A DNA stretch of 52,934 nucleotides from Blastocatellia bacterium (GTDB lineage: Bacteria; Acidobacteriota; Blastocatellia; RBC074): NCBI GenBank assembly GCA_046155425.1, contig JBJXFM010000887.1:1-52934 (forward strand), read 5' to 3'. Below are positions 6,093 through 50,190 of this stretch, in pieces. The notes below the pieces were generated by a model. The model made no database searches. It was not told where the DNA came from and saw only the letters and a program-made list of their open reading frames with translations. Both the position numbers and the translations under genes were made by a program. Numbering within the stretch: the first letter of the stretch is position 1; every line of letters starts with the position of its first letter.

Positions 6093-6704
6093 TTATTTCT
6101 TGTCTGATTTTCTGCTGGTAATGCTTTTTAATTCCAGTTTGGGCAAACCCAGCCGGCCATCGAGCTGACTGAGTTTTTCGAGATCAACCGGGCCGACAAT
6201 ATTGACCACGACCAGCTCTTTGGGCTCGGCGGCGAGAATGGTCAGCCCCAGCATCTGCTCGCCTTCGTACATGGTGTGCACCTCGACCTTCATTCCCTCG
6301 CGTTTACTGATAAATCCCACCAGCCGCGACCAGCCCGGCGCACGCAGCTGCGAACGCACGGGTTCGATATCGGCCGTGTCATACTCACCGGCCTTTTCAA
6401 ACTGATACACACGCACATAGATGCCCTGCAGGCCATTGATCAGGGACTTGACGGCGGCCTCCTCGGGATCGTTGTCCTTCAGAAATTTCGCGGCCATTTT
6501 CAGGGTTCGCTGATCAACATTGACCTCGACCACCTCACTGGCCTTGTCGGCCAGCTTGTCGAAATCAATCTGTATCCGCGCCTTTGACGGTCCCTGCGCG
6601 AGCGCCATGCCGGGTAGTAAAACAAGCAGCAAAGCGAGGCAGGCAAACGCCCGGTCAATGCCGCGATCCTGATTCTTTATGGACAACTTCATGTGTGACC
6701 CCAT
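6093..6704 (-). CDS. DUF4252 family exported protein
   Basis: Signal peptide; KASEVVEVNVD...LQGIYVRVYQFEKAGEY...VRSQLRAPGW...VVNIVGPVDLEKL. Alternative start at 6692. Confidence 0.75.
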   Translation of the reverse strand: MGSHMKLSIKNQDRGIDRAFACLALLLVLLPGMALAQGPSKARIQIDFDKLADKASEVVEVNVDQRTLKMAAKFLKDNDPEEAAVKSLINGLQGIYVRVYQFEKAGEYDTADIEPVRSQLRAPGWSRLVGFISKREGMKVEVHTMYEGEQMLGLTILAAEPKELVVVNIVGPVDLEKLSQLDGRLGLPKLELKSITSRKSDKK

Positions 6705-7130
6705 TTATCTTGTTCCGGTCGCCCGGCCCGAGGTGTTTTCCGGCCCGATTCCCGCCCCGACATGTCCGTCCCCGGAATCCGGCCGCTCCGAGACGGCGGC
6801 GATCTTTTGTTTCGCGCGGTTGAGTTTGCTGCTGGCGATCTGAAACGCAAACATCACCTGCGCCCGCGCCAGCTCACCCTCGGCCCGCAATCGTTCCTGC
6901 CGCTGGCGGAACACGGTCAGACCGGCCATGACCAGCAAACAGGCCAGCGCCCCGGCCATGGCGAAACGCACGGACGGCAGGCGAAACATCGCGAGGAAAC
7001 GCGTCCATGGCGTGATCCGCGCCGGCAATTCGGCCACCTGGGCCAGCACGCGGTCCGCGAAATCCGGCGGCGCCTCGCGGCGGCGCAACGCGCTTTTCAA
7101 CTGGTTCTCAAGATCAACTGAATGATTCAT
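6705..7130 (-). CDS. Putative single-pass anti-sigma factor
   Basis: Directly downstream of the ECF sigma gene; LENQLKSALRRREAPPDFADRVL N-terminus, one TM helix, short C-terminal helix. Start chosen at ATG 7130 behind GGAG. Confidence 0.7.
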   Translation of the reverse strand: MNHSVDLENQLKSALRRREAPPDFADRVLAQVAELPARITPWTRFLAMFRLPSVRFAMAGALACLLVMAGLTVFRQRQERLRAEGELARAQVMFAFQIASSKLNRAKQKIAAVSERPDSGDGHVGAGIGPENTSGRATGTR

Positions 7131-32978: not shown

Positions 32979-33389
32979 CTAGATTGCGCCACGGCATTTT
33001 GCCGCGCCACAGCGGCAGCGTTTTTGTCCTTCGTGATAGGATGACCCGTAATCCACCGTGATTTCCTCGCCTGGCTCGATATCGCGCAGGGCCAGAAACA
33101 AAATGCGGCCATGCGATGTGCGGGTAAAACAATTGGGCTGGCAGGAATGATTGATGTACTGCGTCCCGTTGCCCCCTTTGTCGCCATCGATCGCCCAGTT
33201 CTCATCCACCCCGCAGATACGAATGACTTTTTGTTCGGCGACGCGGCGCGTGGCTTCGTCCTGCGTAATGCGCTCGCCGGCGTATTCCGCGATTTTTCGC
33301 CACTTTTTGAAAGAAGCCGTCGCAAAACATCCCTTGCCGGCGATGCCGGATTTGCGTACGGTCACGCCCGGCGTATATTTCCCGCTCAC
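32979..33389 (-). CDS. Stand-alone SET domain protein with post-SET motif (putative lysine methyltransferase)
   Basis: GKGCFA, YINHSCQPN, ALRDIEPGEEITVDY, CRCGAAKCRG; GTG start overlaps the upstream TGA. Confidence 0.9.
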   Translation of the reverse strand: MSGKYTPGVTVRKSGIAGKGCFATASFKKWRKIAEYAGERITQDEATRRVAEQKVIRICGVDENWAIDGDKGGNGTQYINHSCQPNCFTRTSHGRILFLALRDIEPGEEITVDYGSSYHEGQKRCRCGAAKCRGAI

Positions 33390-36300
33390 GATTCAATCCC
33401 TCCCAGCGAAATCACCTGATCGGTGTAACTCTCAAAACTGTCGTCGTGGCTGATGACAAATAACTGCTCGAATGCGCGGATGCGCCCGATCTGTTGCGCC
33501 AGATTGCGGCGGCGTTCCTCGTCCATGTTCACCGTCGGCTCGTCGAAAAAGGCGATGTTGACTTCCGACAGCTGCCGCAACAATGCCAGGCGCAGCGCCA
33601 GCGCGGCGGCCATCTGCTCGCCGCCGGACAAACTGACGTAGGGACGCTCACGCCCGTCCTCTTCCAGCATGATTTCGTATTCCCGTGTCCAGCGCAGCGT
33701 CACGGCGTGGTTTCCCGTAATGTCGCGAAACAACTGGCAGGCTTCGCGCGAAATCGAGAGCAGCCAGGACTCGGTAATGTACGGCGCGGATTTGCCCAGG
33801 ATGTCGCGAATGAAATCCGCGATGTCGCGTAGTTTCACTTCCTGATCACGCCGCGCCATCTCGGCGCGCATGCGTTCACGCGCCAGTTCCAGTGTTTCCA
33901 GCTGGTCCCGCAACCGCGCAAACTGCTCCCGGCCATGTTCCAGTTGCGTGGTCAGTTGTGTCAGACGATCACGCGTCTGCCCCAGCGCTTCGCGATCATT
34001 CCCATGCCGCGTGGCGTCGTATTGTGCTTCAAGCTGCGCCAGCTCGTTTTCAGCCGTGCGCAGCTGCCGTTCGGCGTCTTCTGATTCCGTGGAGCGCGCG
34101 CGAAGTTCAGCTTCGCATTCATCCACGACGGCCGCCTGTTTTTCATTGGCGAGATAGGCCTGATGATCGGCCGCAGCGGCCGCGCGCGTGGCATTCATTT
34201 CCGCGATCCGCGCATCCAGCGCGGCGAAACGCGGCAGGGCCTGATTGATTTCCGCGAACCTGGCGTCAATTGCGGTGACGGATTGCCCGCCTTTCGCCGC
34301 CGCCTCGCGCCATTCCGGTTCACGGTCAATCGTCTGCCGCAAAGCCATGGCGCGCGCGCGCGGATCGCCAAGGTTTGTCAGCTGATCATGTAAATCCCGC
34401 AGCTGTGTTTCAAGATCACCAAGCTGATCCAGGCGCGTCTGCAATGCCTCACGCTGTTTTCTCCGCGCGGCCCCTTCTTCCTTTACCTGCTCCATTTCCA
34501 GCCGCAGCGGAACCGCCTGGCTATATTGCCGCTGCGCCTCGCGCGCCTGCCGCAATGCCGCATCCAGCTCGCTGCGCCGGCCGCGCAGGATCCGCAGATC
34601 TCCTTCCTGAATCACTGCGCCGGGCGCGATTTCCGCCTGCAATGTTTCGATGCGCTGGCGTTGCTGTTCGAGCAGACCATCCAGACGCTTCTCTGTTTCG
34701 CGCAGGGCAGGTAATCTGGCGGCCTCGCCAGCCTGCACACGTAATTCCTTCAGCCCCGCGCCCGTAGCGGCAATTGCGCTTTCCAGCCCGTTGATTTCCA
34801 GACGGCGTTTTTCCAGACCCGCGCGAAAACGCCCGTCAAGTGATTCGCCGGGTTTCAGGTTCAGGCATTTTTCCGTCAGCAGCGGGCAGACGCCGCCGCT
34901 TTCGAGGCTGGTGATCATCTCGGCGTCGCGCGAAACCTCGGCGCGCAATCTGGCCAGCGCTTCGGTTTCGGCCTGAAATCGCGCTTCGGATTCAGGTAAC
35001 AGGCTGGCTGATTGCGCCAATGGCGCGAGGCGTTGCGCTTCATCGGCAACGGCCCGGTGTTCCGTCTGCAAACGTTTTTGCTCCGTCAGCAGCTGTTCCA
35101 GCAATTCCTGTTTTGCGTTGTATTGCTGCAGGGCGTTCTGTTTTTCCGTCAGCTCCTGTGCCAGGCGGGTGTGTTCGGCTTCCAGTTTCTCGACGCTTTC
35201 GGCTGTTTCGCGCTGTTGCTCAGCGGTTTCGAGGCGCCGCGAAACGTCGGAATAACGTGTGCGCAGGGTGGTCAGTTCCTGATCCAGCGTGGCCAGTGAT
35301 CGTTGCAATCCCTGCGCTTCGCCGCGCGCCTCGCGCATTTGCGAAAGCCGCGTTTCCAGCTCAGCCTGCGCGGCCAGCGACTGATCAAGACTGGCCAGCG
35401 CGCGACGCGCATCGTCTATTTCCGTCAGGGCTTCACGCGCGCGTTCGAGGCGCACGCGCGCGCCGAGCAGTTCGCGCTCGGTCAGCGCGGCCTGCTGGCG
35501 CAGTTCATCGCGCCGCGCGCGTTCCTGTTCACATTCGATCAGCTCCCGCGAGGCGCTTTGCCAGCGTGCATAGCCGGCCCGGGATTTCTCGACGATTTCC
35601 GCCGCCATGCGTGCGGCCTGCGCCGCCATATGCGCGGACCGCAAACGGCCCTGGGCGGCCTCGTCAACGACTTTCAGTTGTCCGGCCTGATTGCGCAGTT
35701 CGCCGATGCGTTGCCACAGGGCATCTGACTGCGTGACCGCCGCTGACAATCGCGTATGTTCAGCCTGCGCCTCCCGGGATGCGGTTTCCAGCGATTGCAG
35801 CAACGCCGCCGTTTCCGCGTGCCGCGATCTGACTTCGTCGTATCGCTTCAGCTCGCCCTCGGCCTCGGCCAGACGGCGATCAATTTCGCTGATCCGCGAT
35901 TCAAAATAACGCAGCGTGTCTTTCAGGGAATCGGCCGCGTCGCGGTATTCCTCAACCCTGAGAATCTGATCGAAAATCTTCTTGCGTGGCGCGGGAGCGA
36001 GGGTGAAATCGTAGGTGAATGCGCCCTGTGGGACGCCGATGGTGGATTTGAAAAGCGCGGCGAGGTCGGTTTCCGGGGCGACACCAATGTGCTGTCGCAG
36101 AAAGGGGACAACCTGGCTTTTCTGTTCGACGAGACGTGTTTTGGTGACGGGATCGAACACGAAATAACCGCCCCCCGTGTCGCGGGTGATGGTGTATTCG
36201 CGCTGATCGAGGCTGGAAATAAAGGAAACGGCGACCTGGCCTTTTTTCGCGCCACGCCGCAGGAAATCGTCGCGGTTGTATTCGAGATGGTCGAACAACG

Positions 36301-36436
36301 CCCAGGCGATGGCCTCAATGATCGTGGTCTTGCCGGCGCCGTTCGGGCCGCAGATCGCAATCACACCAGGACCAAAGCTGAAGGTGGCTTCCGCGTGGCT
36401 CTTGATGTTTCTGAGTTCGACTCTGGTGATTTGCAA
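33386..36436 (-). CDS. sbcC: SbcC/Rad50-type SMC family ATPase
   Basis: Walker A GPNGAGKT, Q-loop VPQG, long coiled coil, central CPLLTEKC, signature LSGGE, Walker B FFDEPT, VISH. Confidence 0.88.
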   Translation of the reverse strand: MQITRVELRNIKSHAEATFSFGPGVIAICGPNGAGKTTIIEAIAWALFDHLEYNRDDFLRRGAKKGQVAVSFISSLDQREYTITRDTGGGYFVFDPVTKTRLVEQKSQVVPFLRQHIGVAPETDLAALFKSTIGVPQGAFTYDFTLAPAPRKKIFDQILRVEEYRDAADSLKDTLRYFESRISEIDRRLAEAEGELKRYDEVRSRHAETAALLQSLETASREAQAEHTRLSAAVTQSDALWQRIGELRNQAGQLKVVDEAAQGRLRSAHMAAQAARMAAEIVEKSRAGYARWQSASRELIECEQERARRDELRQQAALTERELLGARVRLERAREALTEIDDARRALASLDQSLAAQAELETRLSQMREARGEAQGLQRSLATLDQELTTLRTRYSDVSRRLETAEQQRETAESVEKLEAEHTRLAQELTEKQNALQQYNAKQELLEQLLTEQKRLQTEHRAVADEAQRLAPLAQSASLLPESEARFQAETEALARLRAEVSRDAEMITSLESGGVCPLLTEKCLNLKPGESLDGRFRAGLEKRRLEINGLESAIAATGAGLKELRVQAGEAARLPALRETEKRLDGLLEQQRQRIETLQAEIAPGAVIQEGDLRILRGRRSELDAALRQAREAQRQYSQAVPLRLEMEQVKEEGAARRKQREALQTRLDQLGDLETQLRDLHDQLTNLGDPRARAMALRQTIDREPEWREAAAKGGQSVTAIDARFAEINQALPRFAALDARIAEMNATRAAAAADHQAYLANEKQAAVVDECEAELRARSTESEDAERQLRTAENELAQLEAQYDATRHGNDREALGQTRDRLTQLTTQLEHGREQFARLRDQLETLELARERMRAEMARRDQEVKLRDIADFIRDILGKSAPYITESWLLSISREACQLFRDITGNHAVTLRWTREYEIMLEEDGRERPYVSLSGGEQMAAALALRLALLRQLSEVNIAFFDEPTVNMDEERRRNLAQQIGRIRAFEQLFVISHDDSFESYTDQVISLGGIES

Positions 36437-39670: not shown

Positions 39671-40096
39671 ATGCCGATCAGATTACAACTGTCGGAAACA
39701 CGCTATGTGGTCGTCAGTCTGCCGCCGTCGCAATTCGTGGCGGCGCTGGACGCCGCGCGCGCGGCGCCGGAATTCCTCTCGATCATCCGCGATGAAAAGG
39801 AAGTCACGCTGATCCTCGCGCGCGAACACTGGCTGGGGATTGCCGCGCAATTCCCCGCGGCTCGCGCCCAGGACAACTGGCGCATGATTTATTTCGACAC
39901 GGTCATGGATTTCAACGTCGTCGGCTTCATCGCCGAAATCAGCCGCGCCCTGGCCCGCGAGGGCATCAGCATTCTGACCGTCTCGACATACAGCACCGAT
40001 ATGGTGCTGGTCAGCGAAAACCGGTACGAGGACGCGGTCGCCGCCGTCAAACGCGCGCTGATCGCCTTTACGCACACGCATCTTTCACAACACTGA
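39671..40096 (+). CDS. ACT domain protein (ACT_7/CASTOR-like)
   Basis: SIIRDEKEVTLI, WRMIYFDTVMDFNVVGFIAEISRALAREGISILTVSTYSTDMVLV. Confidence 0.82.
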   Translation: MPIRLQLSETRYVVVSLPPSQFVAALDAARAAPEFLSIIRDEKEVTLILAREHWLGIAAQFPAARAQDNWRMIYFDTVMDFNVVGFIAEISRALAREGISILTVSTYSTDMVLVSENRYEDAVAAVKRALIAFTHTHLSQH

Positions 40097-40169
40097 GCAC
40101 AACACTGCGCACAACACTGCGCACAACACCGCGCACAACACCGCGCACAACACCGCGCACAACACTGAG
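40086..40169. repeat. 12-bp tandem array, 7 copies
   Basis: CACAACACTGAG, CACAACACTGCG x2, CACAACACCGCG x3, CACAACACTGAG; the first copy contains the ACT gene stop. Confidence 0.95.
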
Positions 40170-44572: not shown

Positions 44573-45361
44573 ATGAACCTGCTGCATCTGGGCATCATTT
44601 TCGGGGCCGGTTGTCTCGCCGGCATTATGAATTCCATCGCCGGTGGCGGCACGCTGATCACGTTCCCCGCGCTGGTCTGGCACGGTCTGCCGCCGGTCAC
44701 CGCCAATGCGACCAATAGTTTCGCGCTGTGGCCAGGCTCGCTCAGCGCCGCCTGGGGCTATCGGCACGAACTCGGCCCGGGCGAGAAAAAATATCTGCGC
44801 CTGCTCGTCCCCAGTCTGGCCGGCGCCATCATTGGCGCGATCCTTCTGCGAATGACGCCCGACCGCCTGTTTGCGCGCATCATCCCTTTTCTGGTCCTGC
44901 TCGCAACCCTCCTGTTTATGGCGCAGGAACCGATGCAACGCTGGCTGCGTTCACGCCGTGCGGAACCGCCACAAACCAGCGTCACGGACACCGCGCCGAC
45001 AACCCGCTGGACCATCCAGGCCTGGCTGGCGCAGTTTCTGACCGGCATTTACGGCGGATATTTCGGCGCGGGCATGGGCATTATCATGCTGGCGACGCTG
45101 GGCATGATCGGCCTGACCGACATTCACAAAATGAACAGCGTCAAAAACATTCTCGGCTTCTGCATCAATTTTTCCGCCGGCCTGTGGCTCGCCTACGCCG
45201 GTCTGGTGCGCTGGCCCGAAGCGCTTGTCATGATGGCCGGCGCGATCATTGGGGGATATTTCAGCGCGGGCGTGGCGCAACGTCTGGGCCGCCAGTTCGC
45301 GCGGCGCGCCGTGATCGTGATCGGCTTTCTGCTGTTCGCGCTGTTGCTGTTCAAAAGCTGA
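44573..45361 (+). CDS. TSUP/TauE/SafE family membrane protein
   Basis: AGIMNSIAGGGTLITFPAL, ANATN, GIYGGYFGAGMG; about 8 TM helices. Confidence 0.9.
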   Translation: MNLLHLGIIFGAGCLAGIMNSIAGGGTLITFPALVWHGLPPVTANATNSFALWPGSLSAAWGYRHELGPGEKKYLRLLVPSLAGAIIGAILLRMTPDRLFARIIPFLVLLATLLFMAQEPMQRWLRSRRAEPPQTSVTDTAPTTRWTIQAWLAQFLTGIYGGYFGAGMGIIMLATLGMIGLTDIHKMNSVKNILGFCINFSAGLWLAYAGLVRWPEALVMMAGAIIGGYFSAGVAQRLGRQFARRAVIVIGFLLFALLLFKS

Positions 45362-45385
45362 GGCCGGCATGTGGGATTCCCGCGG

Positions 45386-46387
45386 ATGAAAATCGCCATC
45401 CTCATTTCTTCCTATGACGGGTCGCAGGTTCAGTTCAGGGATCTGGACCCGGAATATGATCCGTCGCCATATCTGCCCGCGGACGAATGCACGGTTTTCC
45501 GCATTCTGAAGGCGACCGCTGTCCGCCAGGTCAGCGACATCGCGCGGCGGGGATTCGACGTCATCATCAATTTATGTGACGGCGCATTGGATGAGGACCG
45601 CGCGGGGATCGAGGTCGTCCGGACGCTGGAACGCATGGATATCGCCTTTACCGGCGCGGGCGCGGCATTTTATGACCCGACGCGCGAGGCGATGAAGATG
45701 GCCTGTCATGCCGCCGGCCTCCTGTTCCCCGCCTATGTCATGGCGCGGGAACCAGCGGATGTGGACCGCGCCCTCGCCTGTTTGCGGTTCCCGCTGCTCG
45801 TCAAACACCCGCACGGCTATTCAAGCCTGGGACTGACCCGCGATTCGCGCGTCACGCACACGGATGCGCTGCGCCGCGAAACCGCGCGGACGATCGGACA
45901 GTTTGGCGCCGCGCTGATCGAGGAGTTTATCGAGGGGCGCGAGTTCACGGTGCTTGTCACCGAACCGCGTGACGAGCACGAACCAGCGTGGGTCCTGACG
46001 CCGGTCGAGTTCTGTTTCCCGGCCGGTGAAACGTTCAAGCACTTCGACCTGAAATGGAAGGAATTCGCGCGCATGGAAACGCGCGCCGTCACGGACACAG
46101 CGCTGGTGGCGCGTCTGGCTGACATCGCCGGTCGAACCTTCACCGCGCTCGGCGGATCGGGATATGGGCGTTGCGATCTGCGAATGGACAAGTCAGGGGC
46201 CATATACGTGCTGGAGATCAATCCGAACTGTGCGGTGTTTTATCCGCCCGGCCAGTTCGGCAGCGCTGATTTCATTCTGTCGCATGATCCGGCGGGGCAT
46301 CGCGGGTTTCTCGATCATTTATTGCGCCGCGCCGCGCGCCGTCGTGACCGCCGGCAAAGCGTGTCCGCAGAAAGATCCGACACATGA
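45386..46387 (+). CDS. ATP-grasp ligase, D-Ala-D-Ala ligase-like
   Basis: FPLLVKH...SSLG, LIEEFIEGREFTV, YGRCDLR, LEINPN; lacks the Ddl N-terminal GGxSxE motif. Confidence 0.85.
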   Translation: MKIAILISSYDGSQVQFRDLDPEYDPSPYLPADECTVFRILKATAVRQVSDIARRGFDVIINLCDGALDEDRAGIEVVRTLERMDIAFTGAGAAFYDPTREAMKMACHAAGLLFPAYVMAREPADVDRALACLRFPLLVKHPHGYSSLGLTRDSRVTHTDALRRETARTIGQFGAALIEEFIEGREFTVLVTEPRDEHEPAWVLTPVEFCFPAGETFKHFDLKWKEFARMETRAVTDTALVARLADIAGRTFTALGGSGYGRCDLRMDKSGAIYVLEINPNCAVFYPPGQFGSADFILSHDPAGHRGFLDHLLRRAARRRDRRQSVSAERSDT

Positions 46388-47886
46388 AAATCGCCATCCT
46401 GAATCCTCATTACGCGGATTCCGATCTGCCGTTTGTCGAATATGACCCGGCATGCGATCTGACCCCGTTTCTGACCGGATACGAGCACAAAAACTTTTCC
46501 ATTACCAAAGACAAGGCCGTGCGCCAGGTCGCCGACATCGCCCGCCAGGGTTTCGATGTTTTCATCAATCTGTGCGATGGCTCCTGGGAAGATGACAGCC
46601 CCGGCATCGAGGTCGTGCAGGCGCTGGAACGCATGAACCTGGCGTTCACCGGCGCCGGCGCCGGCTTCTATGACCCCTCGCGCGAAGCCATGAAAATGGC
46701 CTGCCATTCCGTTGGTGTCCTCTTCCCCGCATATGTTTTCGCGCGTCAGCCGGCGGACACCGAACGCGCGCTGGCCGGGTTGCGCTTCCCCCTGCTCGTC
46801 AAACATCCGCACGGACATTCGAGCATGGGCCTGACACCTGACTCGCGCGTCACCAATGCCGACGCCCTGCGCCGGGAAACCGCGACGATGATGGACCGCT
46901 ATGGCGCGGCGCTGATCGAGGAATTCATCGAGGGCATTGAATACACCGTGCTCGTCACCGAGCCACCCGACAAAACGGAAACCGCATGGACCTTTCCGCC
47001 GGTCGAGTTCCGGTTTCCCGCGGGCGAAACCTTTAAGCACTTCGATCTGAAATGGAAGGAAGGCAGCTGGGACACGGAAATGCATGTGGTCACTGACACG
47101 GCGCTGGCGGCGCGTCTGCGCGAAACCGCGGCGCTGACCTTCAACGCCCTCGGCGGAAACGGATATGCGCGCTGTGATCTGCGCATGGACGCGGCGGGCG
47201 ATATTTACCTGCTGGAAATCAACCCGAACTGCGCGGTGTTTTATGAGCAGGGCTATTACGACAGCGCCGATGTCAGCCTGGCCGCCGACCCCGCCGGACA
47301 TCGCGGGTTCCTGGAGCATCTGCTGCAATGCGCCATCCGCCGCCGTGACCGCGCCATCAGGCCCTGGGAAGTTCGTTTTCGCCGTGGCCTCGGTTTTGGC
47401 ATGTATGCCACACGCGCCCTGGCCGCCGGGGAAATCGCCATCAAGTACGAAGAGCGCCCGCATTTCCTCGCCTCGCGCCGCCATGTGCAGCGGCAGTGGA
47501 CGGACATCAAACGACAATGGTTCGAACATTACGCGTGGCCGGTCACCAGCGATCTGCACGTCCTGTGGAGCGATAACCCGGAAGACTGGCGGCCGATCAA
47601 TCATGCCTGTGATCCGAACACGTGGCTGGAAGGGCTGGATCTGGTGGCGCGCCGCGAGATCGCGCCGGGGACCGAGCTGACAGTGGATTACGCGACTTTC
47701 TGCGGTCCCGGCATGGCGGCGTTCGAATGCCGCTGCGGCGCGCCTGACTGCCGCCGCGTGATCATGGGCAGCGATCACCTCCTGCCTGAAATTCAGCGGC
47801 GCTATCACGATCACGTCTCGGATTATGTACGCACGGCATGGCACAATACCGGACCTGGCCAGCGCCCGCCTGACGAAGCGGAATAA
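46384..47886 (+). CDS. ATP-grasp ligase fused to a C-terminal SET + post-SET domain
   Basis: First ~330 aa colinear with the upstream ATP-grasp; then GFGMYATR, INHACDPN, ARREIAPGTELTVDY, CRCGAPDCR. ATGA overlap with the upstream gene. Confidence 0.88.
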   Translation: MKIAILNPHYADSDLPFVEYDPACDLTPFLTGYEHKNFSITKDKAVRQVADIARQGFDVFINLCDGSWEDDSPGIEVVQALERMNLAFTGAGAGFYDPSREAMKMACHSVGVLFPAYVFARQPADTERALAGLRFPLLVKHPHGHSSMGLTPDSRVTNADALRRETATMMDRYGAALIEEFIEGIEYTVLVTEPPDKTETAWTFPPVEFRFPAGETFKHFDLKWKEGSWDTEMHVVTDTALAARLRETAALTFNALGGNGYARCDLRMDAAGDIYLLEINPNCAVFYEQGYYDSADVSLAADPAGHRGFLEHLLQCAIRRRDRAIRPWEVRFRRGLGFGMYATRALAAGEIAIKYEERPHFLASRRHVQRQWTDIKRQWFEHYAWPVTSDLHVLWSDNPEDWRPINHACDPNTWLEGLDLVARREIAPGTELTVDYATFCGPGMAAFECRCGAPDCRRVIMGSDHLLPEIQRRYHDHVSDYVRTAWHNTGPGQRPPDEAE

Positions 47887-47955: not shown

Positions 47956-50190
47956 ATGGCCGCACCCACTCGCGTAGAAATTGTCCAGAACAACCTCGAT
48001 CAATACCTTGCCACGGCGCAATCGCATGTTCCGCCGCTGGCCGCCACGGCGCCCATTCGTCCCGGCGCGATCCTGACAGCCGGGCAGGCCTGTGAAATTT
48101 TCGCCGATCAGGTGACCAGCCGTCTGCTGGATGTCGCCGCGCGGGAACTCAAGGCGCGCAACCAGGGCTATTACACGATTTCCAGCGCGGGCCACGAAAA
48201 CAACGCGATTGCCGGCGCGCTGCTGCGGCTGGATGATCCATGTTTTGTGCATTACCGTTCCGGCGCGCTGATGCTGGCGCGCGCGCGCAGGCTGCCGGGT
48301 TGCGACATGGTCATGGATACGCTGCTTTCGTTCTGCGCGGCGAAAGACGACCCGATCGCCGAGGGCCGCCACAAGGTCTGGGGCAGCCGTCCGTTGTGGG
48401 TCGCGCCGCTGACCAGCACCATCGCCTCGCATGTGCCGCGCGCCACGGGCCTCGCCTTTGCGCTGCGCCACGCGCGCCGTCTGGGCAGGGCCGCGGACCT
48501 CGCCGACGATTCCATTGTCTATTGCTCGATTGGCGACGCATCGGCCAATCACGCGACCGCCCTCGCCGGCATCAACGCCGCGCGTTACACCGTGCGGCGC
48601 GGCGGCGCGGCCCCCGTGCTGTTTCTGTGCGAGGACAACGGCATCGGCATCTCGGTCGAAACACCGCGCGACTGGATTCACGATACATACAGCTCGCAAA
48701 GTTATCTGAAATATTTCGAGGCGGCCGGCGCGCTGGATGAAATGTACGGCGTGGTGTCCGAGGCCATTGAAACCTGCCGCCGCACGCGCGCGCCCGTGTT
48801 CCTGCGCATGCCCGTGACGCGCCTCTGGGGACACGCCGGCACCGATGTCGAAAGCAGTTACCGCACACCCGAGGAAATTCAGGCCGCCGAAGCGCTGGAC
48901 CCGCTGCTCGCCAACGCGCGCCTGCTGATCGAAACCGGCGCCGCCACGCCCGCCGCCCTGCAATCAATGATCGGCGGCATCCGCGCGCGCATTGACGCGG
49001 CCCTGCCCGAGGCCGCCAACCGTCCGCGTCTGACCAGTGTCGCCGAGGTCATCACGCCGCTGGCGCCATACGACGAAAAGGCCTGCCGCGTCACCGGCGT
49101 ATTCGCCGCCGACAACGAAACGCGCCTGCGCCTTTTCGACAACACCCTGCCGGAACAAAACACCAGCCCTGTCCGGCGGACCATGGCCGCGCATATCAAT
49201 TCCGCGCTGGCCGACGCCATGCTCGCCTGTCCGGAAATCATGGTCTTTGGCGAAGATGTCGGCAAAAAAGGCGGCGTATATAACGTCACCAACGGTTTGC
49301 AGAAAAAATTCGGCGTGGCGCGTTGTTTCGACACGTTGCTGGATGAAACGACGATTTTCGGCACGGCGCTCGGCGCGGCGCTGATCGGTCTGTTGCCCAT
49401 CCCCGAAATTCAATACCTCGCCTACATGCACAACGCGCTGGACCAGGTGCGCGGCGAAGCCTGTTCGATGTCGTTTTTTTCCGCCGGGCAATTCACCAAC
49501 CCGATGGTCATTCGCGTGCAGGGGCTCGCGTATCAGAAAGGCTTTGGCGGACACTTTCACAACGATAATTCCATCGGCGCGCTGCGCGACATACCGGGAC
49601 TGATGCTGTGCGTGCCCGCGCGCGGCGACGACGCGGCGCAACTGTTGCGCGGGGCCATCGCCGCCGCCCGCGCCTGTTCCCGCGTCGTCTGTTTCCTCGA
49701 ACCCATCGCCCTCTATCACGAAAAGGATTTGTATGAAGACGGCGACAGCAAATGGCTGAGCGATTACCCCGCGCCCGGCGAAATCCTGCTGCCCGGCGAA
49801 ACGGGCATTTATCACGGCGCCGCGCGCGACCTGCTGCTCGTTAGCTATGCCAACGGATTGCGTTTGTCATTGCGCGCCGCGCGGCGATTGCGGGAACAGC
49901 ATGGAATCAATGCGCGCGTGCTCGACCTGCGCTGGCTGAATCCATTGCCCATGGAATCCGTGCTCGCACACGCACGGGAATGCGGCCGTGTGCTGGTCGC
50001 CGACGAATGCCGCGCCACCGGTGGCGGCATCGCCGACGCGATCATCGCCGGCCTGGCGGAACATGGATTCAATGGCCGCATGCGTTCCGTCCGCGCCGTG
50101 GACACCTATGTTCCCCTCGGACCAGCGGCCAACCTCGTCCTCATTTCCGAAGAGCAGATCACCGCCGCCGCGCAGGCGTCGTGTTCCTGA
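47956..50190 (+). CDS. 2-oxoacid dehydrogenase E1 alpha/beta fusion (ThDP-dependent)
   Basis: [13 protein letters not shown], ThDP motif IGDAS...[33 protein letters not shown]. Confidence 0.9.

Follow-up and report, generated by a model that had tools for sequence, protein, structure and literature searches.

A ligase/SET gene pair in a Blastocatellia genome as a candidate ligation and methylation module

What does a ligase with the fold of D-alanine-D-alanine ligase (Ddl) do when it is joined to a SET domain, and why would a genome keep two copies of it side by side, with the SET domain on one of them only? The question is raised by contig JBJXFM010000887.1 of a Blastocatellia bacterium (GenBank assembly GCA_046155425.1), of which the whole stretch of 52,934 nucleotides (nt) that was analysed is here called the window. 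Two overlapping open reading frames on its forward strand, ORF1 and ORF2, encode ATP-grasp proteins, and the second continues into a SET domain. The folds are known, the combination is widespread and uncharacterised, and the history of the pair is an unexpected one of paired paralogues. The reading favoured here, with a probability of roughly 0.55, is that the two genes form a functional ligase/SET module which likely works as an asymmetric, Ddl-like dimer and would ligate and methylate a small molecule. The genes and their parts are as follows.

45386-46387, + strand: ORF1, Ddl-fold ATP-grasp ligase paralogue of 333 amino acids (aa) without SET domain (list of open reading frames, Pfam PF07478, trees)
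46384-47886, + strand: ORF2, 500 aa, ATP-grasp and SET/post-SET (list of open reading frames, Pfam)
46384-46387, + strand: ATGA overlap of the ORF1 stop and the ORF2 start (read from the sequence)
46384-47343, + strand: ORF2 residues 1-320, Ddl-fold ATP-grasp domain (PF07478, AlphaFold2 model, Foldseek, invariant motifs)
47344-47886, + strand: ORF2 residues 321-500, SET domain with an insert of about 50 residues, post-SET CxCx4C and a short tail (Pfam SET)

The original prediction, made from the sequence, had described two overlapping Ddl-like ATP-grasp paralogues, and their coordinates, the ATGA overlap and their close kinship were confirmed. The proteins are identical at 213 of 315 positions (68%; BLASTP E 4e-152) and the genes at 74.5% over 828 nt, their opening 17 nt being the same, and the five sequence blocks listed as shared are all found at matching positions in both proteins. 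ORF1 starts at the ATG at 45386, with an alternative GTG likewise in frame at 45371, and the overlap suggests translational coupling from ORF1 to ORF2. Both genes have a GC content of 0.62, and of 0.73-0.74 at third codon positions, similar to the flanking genes. The ORF1/ORF2 junction is spanned without differences by contigs from three of four public DNA sequencing runs; these are low-depth contigs from a single study that cover the stretch in part, and since the runs are possibly the source of the assembly itself, they show the junction only as no artefact of a single assembly.

Catalytic domains of the two proteins

When the proteins were scanned with hidden Markov models, as had been proposed, the Ddl domain of Pfam (PF07478, Dala_Dala_lig_C) was found in both, with 65.7 bits (E 5.4e-18) for ORF1 and 64.3 bits (E 1.4e-17) for ORF2 at a cut-off of 24, and a SET domain in ORF2. 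The AlphaFold2 model of ORF2 has a predicted local distance difference test score (pLDDT) of 92.6 and a predicted template modelling (TM) score of 0.89, and the best Foldseek matches of its ligase half are DdlB and DdlA (TM-scores of 0.74-0.81 relative to the Ddl chain, identity about 20%). The three-domain ATP-grasp fold is common to ORF2 and Ddl, as seen in structures such as 8evy, 5bph and 2dln. In the family alignment K140, E179, E180, E186, R263, D265 and E278 are invariant and N280 nearly so, and ORF1 retains all of these ATP- and Mg-binding ligase residues. The motifs VKHP..YS.G, EEF..G.E, FKHF..KW, RCD.R and LEINP are also invariant or nearly invariant, and VKP..GSS.G, GR.D and LLE.N of Ddl correspond to VKHP.G.SS.G, RCD and LLEIN in the family of ORF1 and ORF2.

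ORF1 and ORF2 are not the cell-wall Ddl. The Ddl model TIGR01205 gives 71.5 bits for ORF1 and 75.3 bits for ORF2 against a curated cut-off of 245.65, and NF002378 gives 74.7 and 72.5 bits against a cut-off of 243; no model specific to the ATP-grasp/SET family was found in the NCBIfam scan, where the Ddl models rank best, below their cut-offs. The true Ddl of the same genome is encoded on contig C575 and scores 372.9 bits, above the cut-off. Grouping with true Ddl, which the original prediction had named as a result that would speak against it, is thus not what was found: 71-76 bits stand against cut-offs of 243-246, and ddl lies elsewhere in the genome. In Ddl the N-terminal GGxSxE motif holds the first D-alanine (D-Ala), and the omega-loop carries Lys-Tyr. 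A motif scan of both proteins found GG.S.E absent, in agreement with the earlier claim. Aligned with Pseudomonas aeruginosa DdlB, the family keeps the ATP/Mg motifs, the omega-loop changes from F.DY.AKY to FKHFDLKW, and the loop after LLEIN differs; the end of the Ddl omega-loop, ...AKY, is aligned to ...LKW, and K223 and W224 are invariant in the family. Since the ATP/Mg motifs are kept and the omega-loop and post-LLEIN loop are changed, the proteins are best described as Ddl-fold ligases with a different substrate site. Unlike Ddl, the family members are fused to or paired with SET domains. No RimK or tubulin-tyrosine-ligase (TTL) domain was found in either protein in the Pfam scan at E<=0.01.

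The SET domain of ORF2, here called SET1, is found by Pfam (PF00856) at residues 337-436 with 43.2 bits against a cut-off of 22.4, and none is found by Pfam in ORF1. The description of an intact SET and post-SET region in the second protein only was borne out, as NHACDPN (406), ELTVDY (431) and CRCGAPDC (449) are found in ORF2 only. H407, C409, C449, C451 and C456 are invariant in the family and Y436 is nearly so. SET1 holds an insert of about 50 residues that is rich in invariant tryptophans (W395, W402, W414). As the catalytic hallmarks of both domains are conserved, ATP-dependent ligation and methylation dependent on S-adenosylmethionine (SAM) would be expected.

Reading of the family's sequences gives four building blocks: the ligase (G), SET1, a mini-SET, which is a SET domain without the SET1 insert (Pfam SET 24.1 bits in the family protein P0122), and SET2, a second and different SET domain found C-terminally in forms of about 640 aa. 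The best Protein Data Bank (PDB) sequence match of SET1 is BurB, with E 2.9e-10, restricted to ORF2 residues 405-470 (about 66 residues). BurB is also the top PDB sequence match of the mini-SET (E 7.7e-11) and of SET2 (E 7e-14 over BurB residues 50-160). By fold the order is another one: with a model of SET1 alone (pLDDT 84.6) BurB comes 13th, behind ASH1L and MLL, with TM-scores of about 0.6 for all. Since the SET1 fold is as near to histone methyltransferases as to BurB, a protein substrate stays a serious rival to a small molecule.

BurB (PDB 9l4t and 9l4v) is a SET-domain methionine S-methyltransferase of dimethylsulfoniopropionate and malleicyprol synthesis in Burkholderia thailandensis, and its methylation of free methionine means that a SET domain is able to act on a free amino acid (PMC12542666). 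Like the SET domains of the family it is a small bacterial SET with a post-SET CxCx4C. Unlike SET1 it is a stand-alone protein of 180 residues, encoded in a biosynthetic cluster, and is without the insert of about 50 residues. Among the Pfam-annotated neighbours in the window none resembles such a dedicated cluster; homologues of BurI, BurD and BurE themselves were not searched for.

The window also encodes a stand-alone SET protein of 136 aa (32979-33389, - strand; Pfam SET 81.5 bits). The start of its gene overlaps by 4 nt the 3' end of a gene for an SbcC/Rad50-like ATPase (1016 aa, 33386-36436, - strand). It is a generic small bacterial SET, unlike the SET2 of the family.

Architectures of the family and history of the pair

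The family is large, widespread, patchily distributed and uncharacterised. ORF2 has 1072 matches at E<=1e-3 (8000 candidates scored), and both PF07478 and PF00856 are present in all 120 ORF2 homologues among the matches listed; for ORF1 there are 2080 matches at E<=1e-30, counted as sequence clusters. The database names are automatic and read 'D-alanine-D-alanine ligase' or 'SET domain-containing protein-lysine N-methyltransferase'. Among species-representative genomes the gene is found in Acidobacteriota, Chloroflexota, Myxococcota, Planctomycetota, Gemmatimonadota, Actinomycetota and Spirochaetota, and also in Rhodothermales and Pseudomonas; many of the phyla are those of soil, freshwater and sediment, and Pseudomonas sp. 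LP_7_YM (locus L034) is a cultured carrier. An ORF1 homologue at E<=1e-20 was found in none of 40 relatives of the window's genome (five from its genus, 19 from its family and 16 from its class), and the gene is present in seven of the 401 sampled genomes of the phylum, the window's own included. The PADLOC models returned no family for ORF1, ORF2 or the long family protein P0002.

The building blocks occur in several combinations. A set of 188 sequences comprises 103 G-SET1, 58 G-SET1-SET2 and 10 G-mini proteins, 13 with the ligase only and four with odd tails; two of the ligase-only entries, P0133 and P0137, are truncated calls of longer genes at loci L006 and L005 and were therefore not used as evidence for SET-less forms. 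At 80 genome loci a single fused gene is found 69 times, as G-SET1 alone (46) or as G-SET1-SET2 (23), and tandem ligase copies are found at five. SET2 is a separate adjoining gene at L026, L055, L070/L073, L072 and L145-147. Since it is found both fused and as an adjoining gene, fusion and fission connect the parts. At its core the family consists of a single fused gene that is complete in itself, with the SET domains as modules that can be exchanged.

Stand-alone SET genes lie beside G-SET1 at L072 (9652-10230, - strand) and L055 (6190-6666, + strand), both SET2-like, and at L001 a stand-alone mini-SET-like gene (6371-6742, + strand) adjoins G-SET1; the SET modules of the family thus also exist as genes of their own. 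The ligase can evidently also occur alone, since L122 (1673-2656, + strand) holds a lone ligase-only member of 327 aa, flanked by genes for a zinc alcohol dehydrogenase and a gluconolactonase-like protein; its contig, of 3.3 kb, carries no SET gene. At L080, in a Solirubrobacterales genome, a third and very divergent ATP-grasp gene (6135-7103, - strand; 322 aa) stands head-to-head with a short-plus-long pair. A search of proteins of 876-2500 aa for larger fusions gave one match, P0184 (1408 aa), in which an AAA_16 (STAND-type) ATPase region precedes a C-terminal family ligase that is 43% identical to ORF2 and has no SET domain; a single match carries little weight.

The relationship between the two genes was studied with trees of 115 ligase domains (FastTree) and of 77 (IQ-TREE, quick mode). 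In both, ORF1 forms a group with P0122, a G-mini protein of 438 aa that is 79% identical to it, and with P0123 (326 aa). These two are 78-79% identical to ORF1, and scans of genomes and metagenomes gave nothing above 72%. The three lie inside a clade, starred in the trees, of mostly G-mini proteins, in which nine of 12 rows carry the mini-SET. ORF2 groups instead with P0002 (642 aa, G-SET1-SET2, 81-83% identical), and the starred clade around them consists of G-SET1-SET2 proteins. The branching is congruent between two clades of 10 rows each, both starred, an 'upstream' one with ORF1 and a 'downstream' one with ORF2, and in all five downstream-clade rows for which DNA is at hand (the window, L001, L118, L123 and L137) a gene of the upstream clade lies directly 5'. 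Equal contig sizes are given in database listings for P0123/P0002, P0131/P0006 and P0128/P0034, and the pairing of P0128 with P0034 is proven by L118. Given adjacency at five of five loci together with congruent branching, the pair is an old, co-diverging two-gene module and not a recent duplicate. Pair and neighbours were looked for in homologues, as had been suggested: the two clades do stand together, within the whole family such a pair is exceptional, with tandem ligase copies at five of 80 loci, and no other neighbours are conserved.

Compared with their nearest kin, both genes are shortened. ORF1 stops about 15 residues past the ligase domain, where P0122 enters the mini-SET, and ORF2 stops where P0002 runs on into SET2; by this comparison ORF1 has lost a mini-SET and ORF2 a SET2. 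A search of the rest of the genome (93.9% complete) gave no SET2-like gene. The original prediction held that the first protein ends just where the second continues, and it does end after its ligase; it is no shortened copy of ORF2, however, and belongs to a separate clade of mini-SET paralogues. Nor does ORF1 look like a strain-specific, decaying duplicate, the other outcome that was to speak against the proposal: the clades are neighbours with congruent trees, and at the 90 alignment columns that are at least 93% conserved among 187 sequences ORF1 deviates at none, against three for ORF2 and a median of one, so that judged by its conserved positions ORF1 is not decaying. The module is real, intact and conserved.

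Losses of the same kind have occurred elsewhere. P0123 separately lost its mini-SET and kept the ligase, with one deviation at the conserved columns. Independent short-upstream/long-downstream pairs are found at L072 and L080, in metagenome-assembled genomes of Spirochaetota and Solirubrobacterales, respectively. The two copies are sisters in each, and the upstream ones are SET-less and faster-evolving, with eight and six deviations, respectively.

Predicted complex, neighbouring genes and rival explanations

A heterodimer had been suggested from the dimeric state of Ddl-type enzymes, and structure prediction supports it: the complex of ORF2 with ORF1 scored 0.77, a mark reached by 58 of 80 solved complexes and two of 110 mismatched pairs, and the best control scored 0.01. 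Contacts agree by at least 92% between runs, and the pLDDT of the partner is at least 86. The predicted interface has two parts. One is a symmetric contact of the N-terminal domains through residues 41-54 and 68-76 of both chains, that is, a Ddl-like dimer interface. In the other the ORF2 SET domain (329-338, 374-383 and 397-404) would lie on the ORF1 ligase (94-119, 132-133 and 250-256), and the ORF1 surface beneath includes the family-specific invariant block FYDP.R..MK. We know of no solved precedent for a SET-on-ligase interface. The model suggests that the SET domain acts in trans on the ligase of the neighbouring subunit, and the module is probably heteromeric.

On the favoured reading the family would link a carboxylate-amine ligase of Ddl-fold ATP-grasp type with SAM methyltransferase domains of SET type, either one or two of them. 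ORF2, with ligase and SET1 in a single chain, the commonest form in the family, would be the self-sufficient core, and ORF1, intact and SET-less, would come from an old clade of sister paralogues whose genes stand immediately upstream of those of the ORF2 clade. The two would most likely dimerise through their N-terminal domains, with the ORF2 SET domain docked across onto the ORF1 ligase, so that the asymmetric dimer would have two active sites for ligation and one for methylation. A carboxylate and an amine, though not two D-Ala, would be joined by the ligase, and methylation by the SET domain would fall on either the substrate or the product. Small molecules are what Ddl-type ligases act on, and BurB is the best SET match by sequence, which tilts the choice towards a small amino-acid-derived product, for instance a methylated dipeptide-like metabolite, rather than a protein. 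Coupling of the two reactions, in the form originally proposed of ligation followed by N-methylation of an amino acid or amine, is plausible and, like the class of substrate and the physiological role, an inference. A further elaboration is put forward tentatively: the family might make a new methylated metabolite derived from amino acids, for instance a dipeptide of betaine or sulfonium type, on a domain-swapped dimer whose SET domains each serve the opposite ligase. An asymmetric form that joins a SET-less or mini-SET subunit to a SET-bearing one, repeatedly evolved in bacteria, would alter how many methyl groups are added or where, and the pair in the window would be a one-SET heterodimer of this kind.

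The genes that surround the pair give little guidance to a pathway. The two nearest are listed here as context.

44573-45361, + strand: membrane transporter of the TauE/SafE family, 24 nt upstream of ORF1 (Pfam TauE E 1.4e-45)
47956-50190, + strand: fused alpha-beta E1 of a 2-oxoacid dehydrogenase, 69 nt downstream of ORF2 (Pfam E1_dh, Transket_pyr, Transketolase_C)

The TauE/SafE gene may be co-transcribed with the pair. When the nine flanking proteins of the window were compared with the 80 related loci by tblastn, TauE, E1, RluD, GNAT, the Cys/Met enzyme dependent on pyridoxal phosphate (PLP) and MnmA were found at none of them, and the flanking histidine kinase at three. Clustering of the 922 ORFs of the 80 loci all against all gave a commonest neighbour family that occurs at no more than 11 loci, and since all of these are of Bryobacterales type, this is shared synteny by descent. 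A DUF3326 gene was considered as a partner and rejected: it is upstream at L070 and L073, two loci so alike at that gene (93-97% identity) that they amount to a single observation. E1 shows vertical conservation across genus and family in genomes that do not have the ATP-grasp pair, and is present in 14 of 15 genomes of the bacterial family (the unpublished G007 included). Beside E1 these genomes have none of the window's genes, and so they do not bear on a possible insertion of the pair at the TauE/E1 junction. The E1 protein of the window has 744 aa with both subunits in one chain, and is 67-74% identical across genus and family. Further upstream a tandem repeat with a 12-nt unit (6.8 copies, 95% match, 40086-40167) lies between a small ORF and the gene for the Cys/Met PLP enzyme and covers the predicted start region of the latter.

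Several points weigh against the favoured reading. The methylation might be of N, S or protein-lysine type, and no neighbour that points to a pathway is conserved among the 80 loci. The likeness to BurB is limited in two ways, as the SET1 fold resembles ASH1L and MLL as well as BurB and the sequence match is confined to the residues around the post-SET. The presence of one gene at 69 of 80 loci means that ORF1 is not needed for the core function, and the end branch of ORF1 (0.23-0.24) has roughly double the length found in its sisters (0.10-0.13). As for the complex, the pass does not separate a heterodimer from two homodimers, and as the N-domain contact resembles solved Ddl dimers, that part of the pass may reflect known structures.

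The strongest rival, which we nevertheless consider unlikely, is a protein-modifying module: a target protein would receive an amino acid from the ATP-grasp domain, on a side chain or at the C-terminus, and methylation of one of its lysines from the SET domain. Additions of this type are made by RimK and tubulin-tyrosine-ligase-type enzymes, and lysine methylation of proteins is the best-known activity of SET domains; SET1 matches ASH1L and MLL by fold at least as well as BurB, and the absence of conserved neighbours at the related loci is consistent with a widely conserved housekeeping protein as target. The database name 'protein-lysine N-methyltransferase' points the same way, but such names are automatic and untested. 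A ligase half that is of Ddl-type three-domain build by both sequence and fold, and has no RimK-like Pfam match at the threshold given above, fits this reading poorly, and the patchiness (none of 40 relatives, seven of 401 genomes of the phylum) would be odd for a modifier of a core protein. In favour of this rival there is also a eukaryotic precedent for a SET-like and an ATP-grasp domain in one chain, TTLL12 (PMC3520985). A sulfonium or betaine pathway, in which a BurB-like SET domain methylates the sulfur or amine of a free amino acid, the ligase links the charged product with a second acid and, in the window, the TauE exporter and E1 take part, appears improbable. It draws on BurB as top PDB sequence match of SET1, mini-SET and SET2 and on the methylation of free methionine by BurB (PMC12542666), on the invariant W395, W402 and W414 of the SET1 insert and on the closeness of the TauE and E1 genes on the same strand. 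However, neither gene lies beside the family gene at any of the 80 related loci, E1 is an ordinary vertically inherited gene of the bacterial family, and SET2, the most BurB-like domain, was not found in the genome; the substrate contacts of BurB are made by the main chain and give no side chains to compare.

The remaining two explanations concern the status of the genes themselves. That ORF1 is a functionless leftover, a truncated paralogue being lost, and that only ORF2 matters, is quite improbable, even though ORF1 is without the mini-SET that nine of 12 rows in its clade carry, its sisters have end branches about half as long and most family members have no partner copy. None of its 90 conserved positions is changed, its frame is intact and the start of ORF2 is ATGA-coupled to it. 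P0123 (326 aa) has undergone the same loss separately with its ligase kept and one deviation, SET-less upstream copies have arisen independently at L072 and L080, and the predicted ORF1-ORF2 interface is confident. It is hardly credible that the pair are extra cell-wall D-Ala-D-X ligases of Ddl or Van type, a candidate that comes to mind since Ddl and Van ligases are the best Pfam, NCBIfam and structural matches: the scores, at 71-76 bits against curated cut-offs of 243-246, contradict it, and so do the missing GGxSxE, the invariant Lys-Trp in place of the omega-loop Lys-Tyr, the different loop after LEINP, the SET fusion of one copy and the separate true Ddl with its 372.9 bits on C575.

Comparison with other ligase and SET systems

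A full-text literature search found no paper on a bacterial ATP-grasp-SET protein, although a survey of ATP-grasp amidoligases from 2009 may mention the fusion. Should the module make a methylated small molecule, it would be a new class of ligase-methyltransferase enzyme and, after BurB, one more SET domain whose activity is not the methylation of protein lysines. How a homodimer evolves into an asymmetric heterodimer could be studied in the short-plus-long gene pairs, which recur in the family as natural test cases.

The only described single chain with a SET-type and an ATP-grasp-type domain that was found in the literature search is TTLL12, which is reported to have neither histone methylation nor tubulin ligation activity (PMC3520985). 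It differs from ORF2, by its description, in being eukaryotic and in having an ATP-grasp domain of TTL type rather than of Ddl type. Its domain order is presumably reversed as well, with the SET-like domain at the N-terminus.

An analogy to the favoured reading is offered by Ngg, a bifunctional osmolyte synthase in which an acetyltransferase and an ATP-grasp dipeptide ligase together make N-acetylglutaminylglutamine amide. Here one polypeptide ligates two amino acids and decorates the product, with no dedicated substrate genes as neighbours. Ngg is unlike ORF2 in that its decorating domain is a GNAT and not a SET domain, and in that its ligase belongs to a different ATP-grasp clade.

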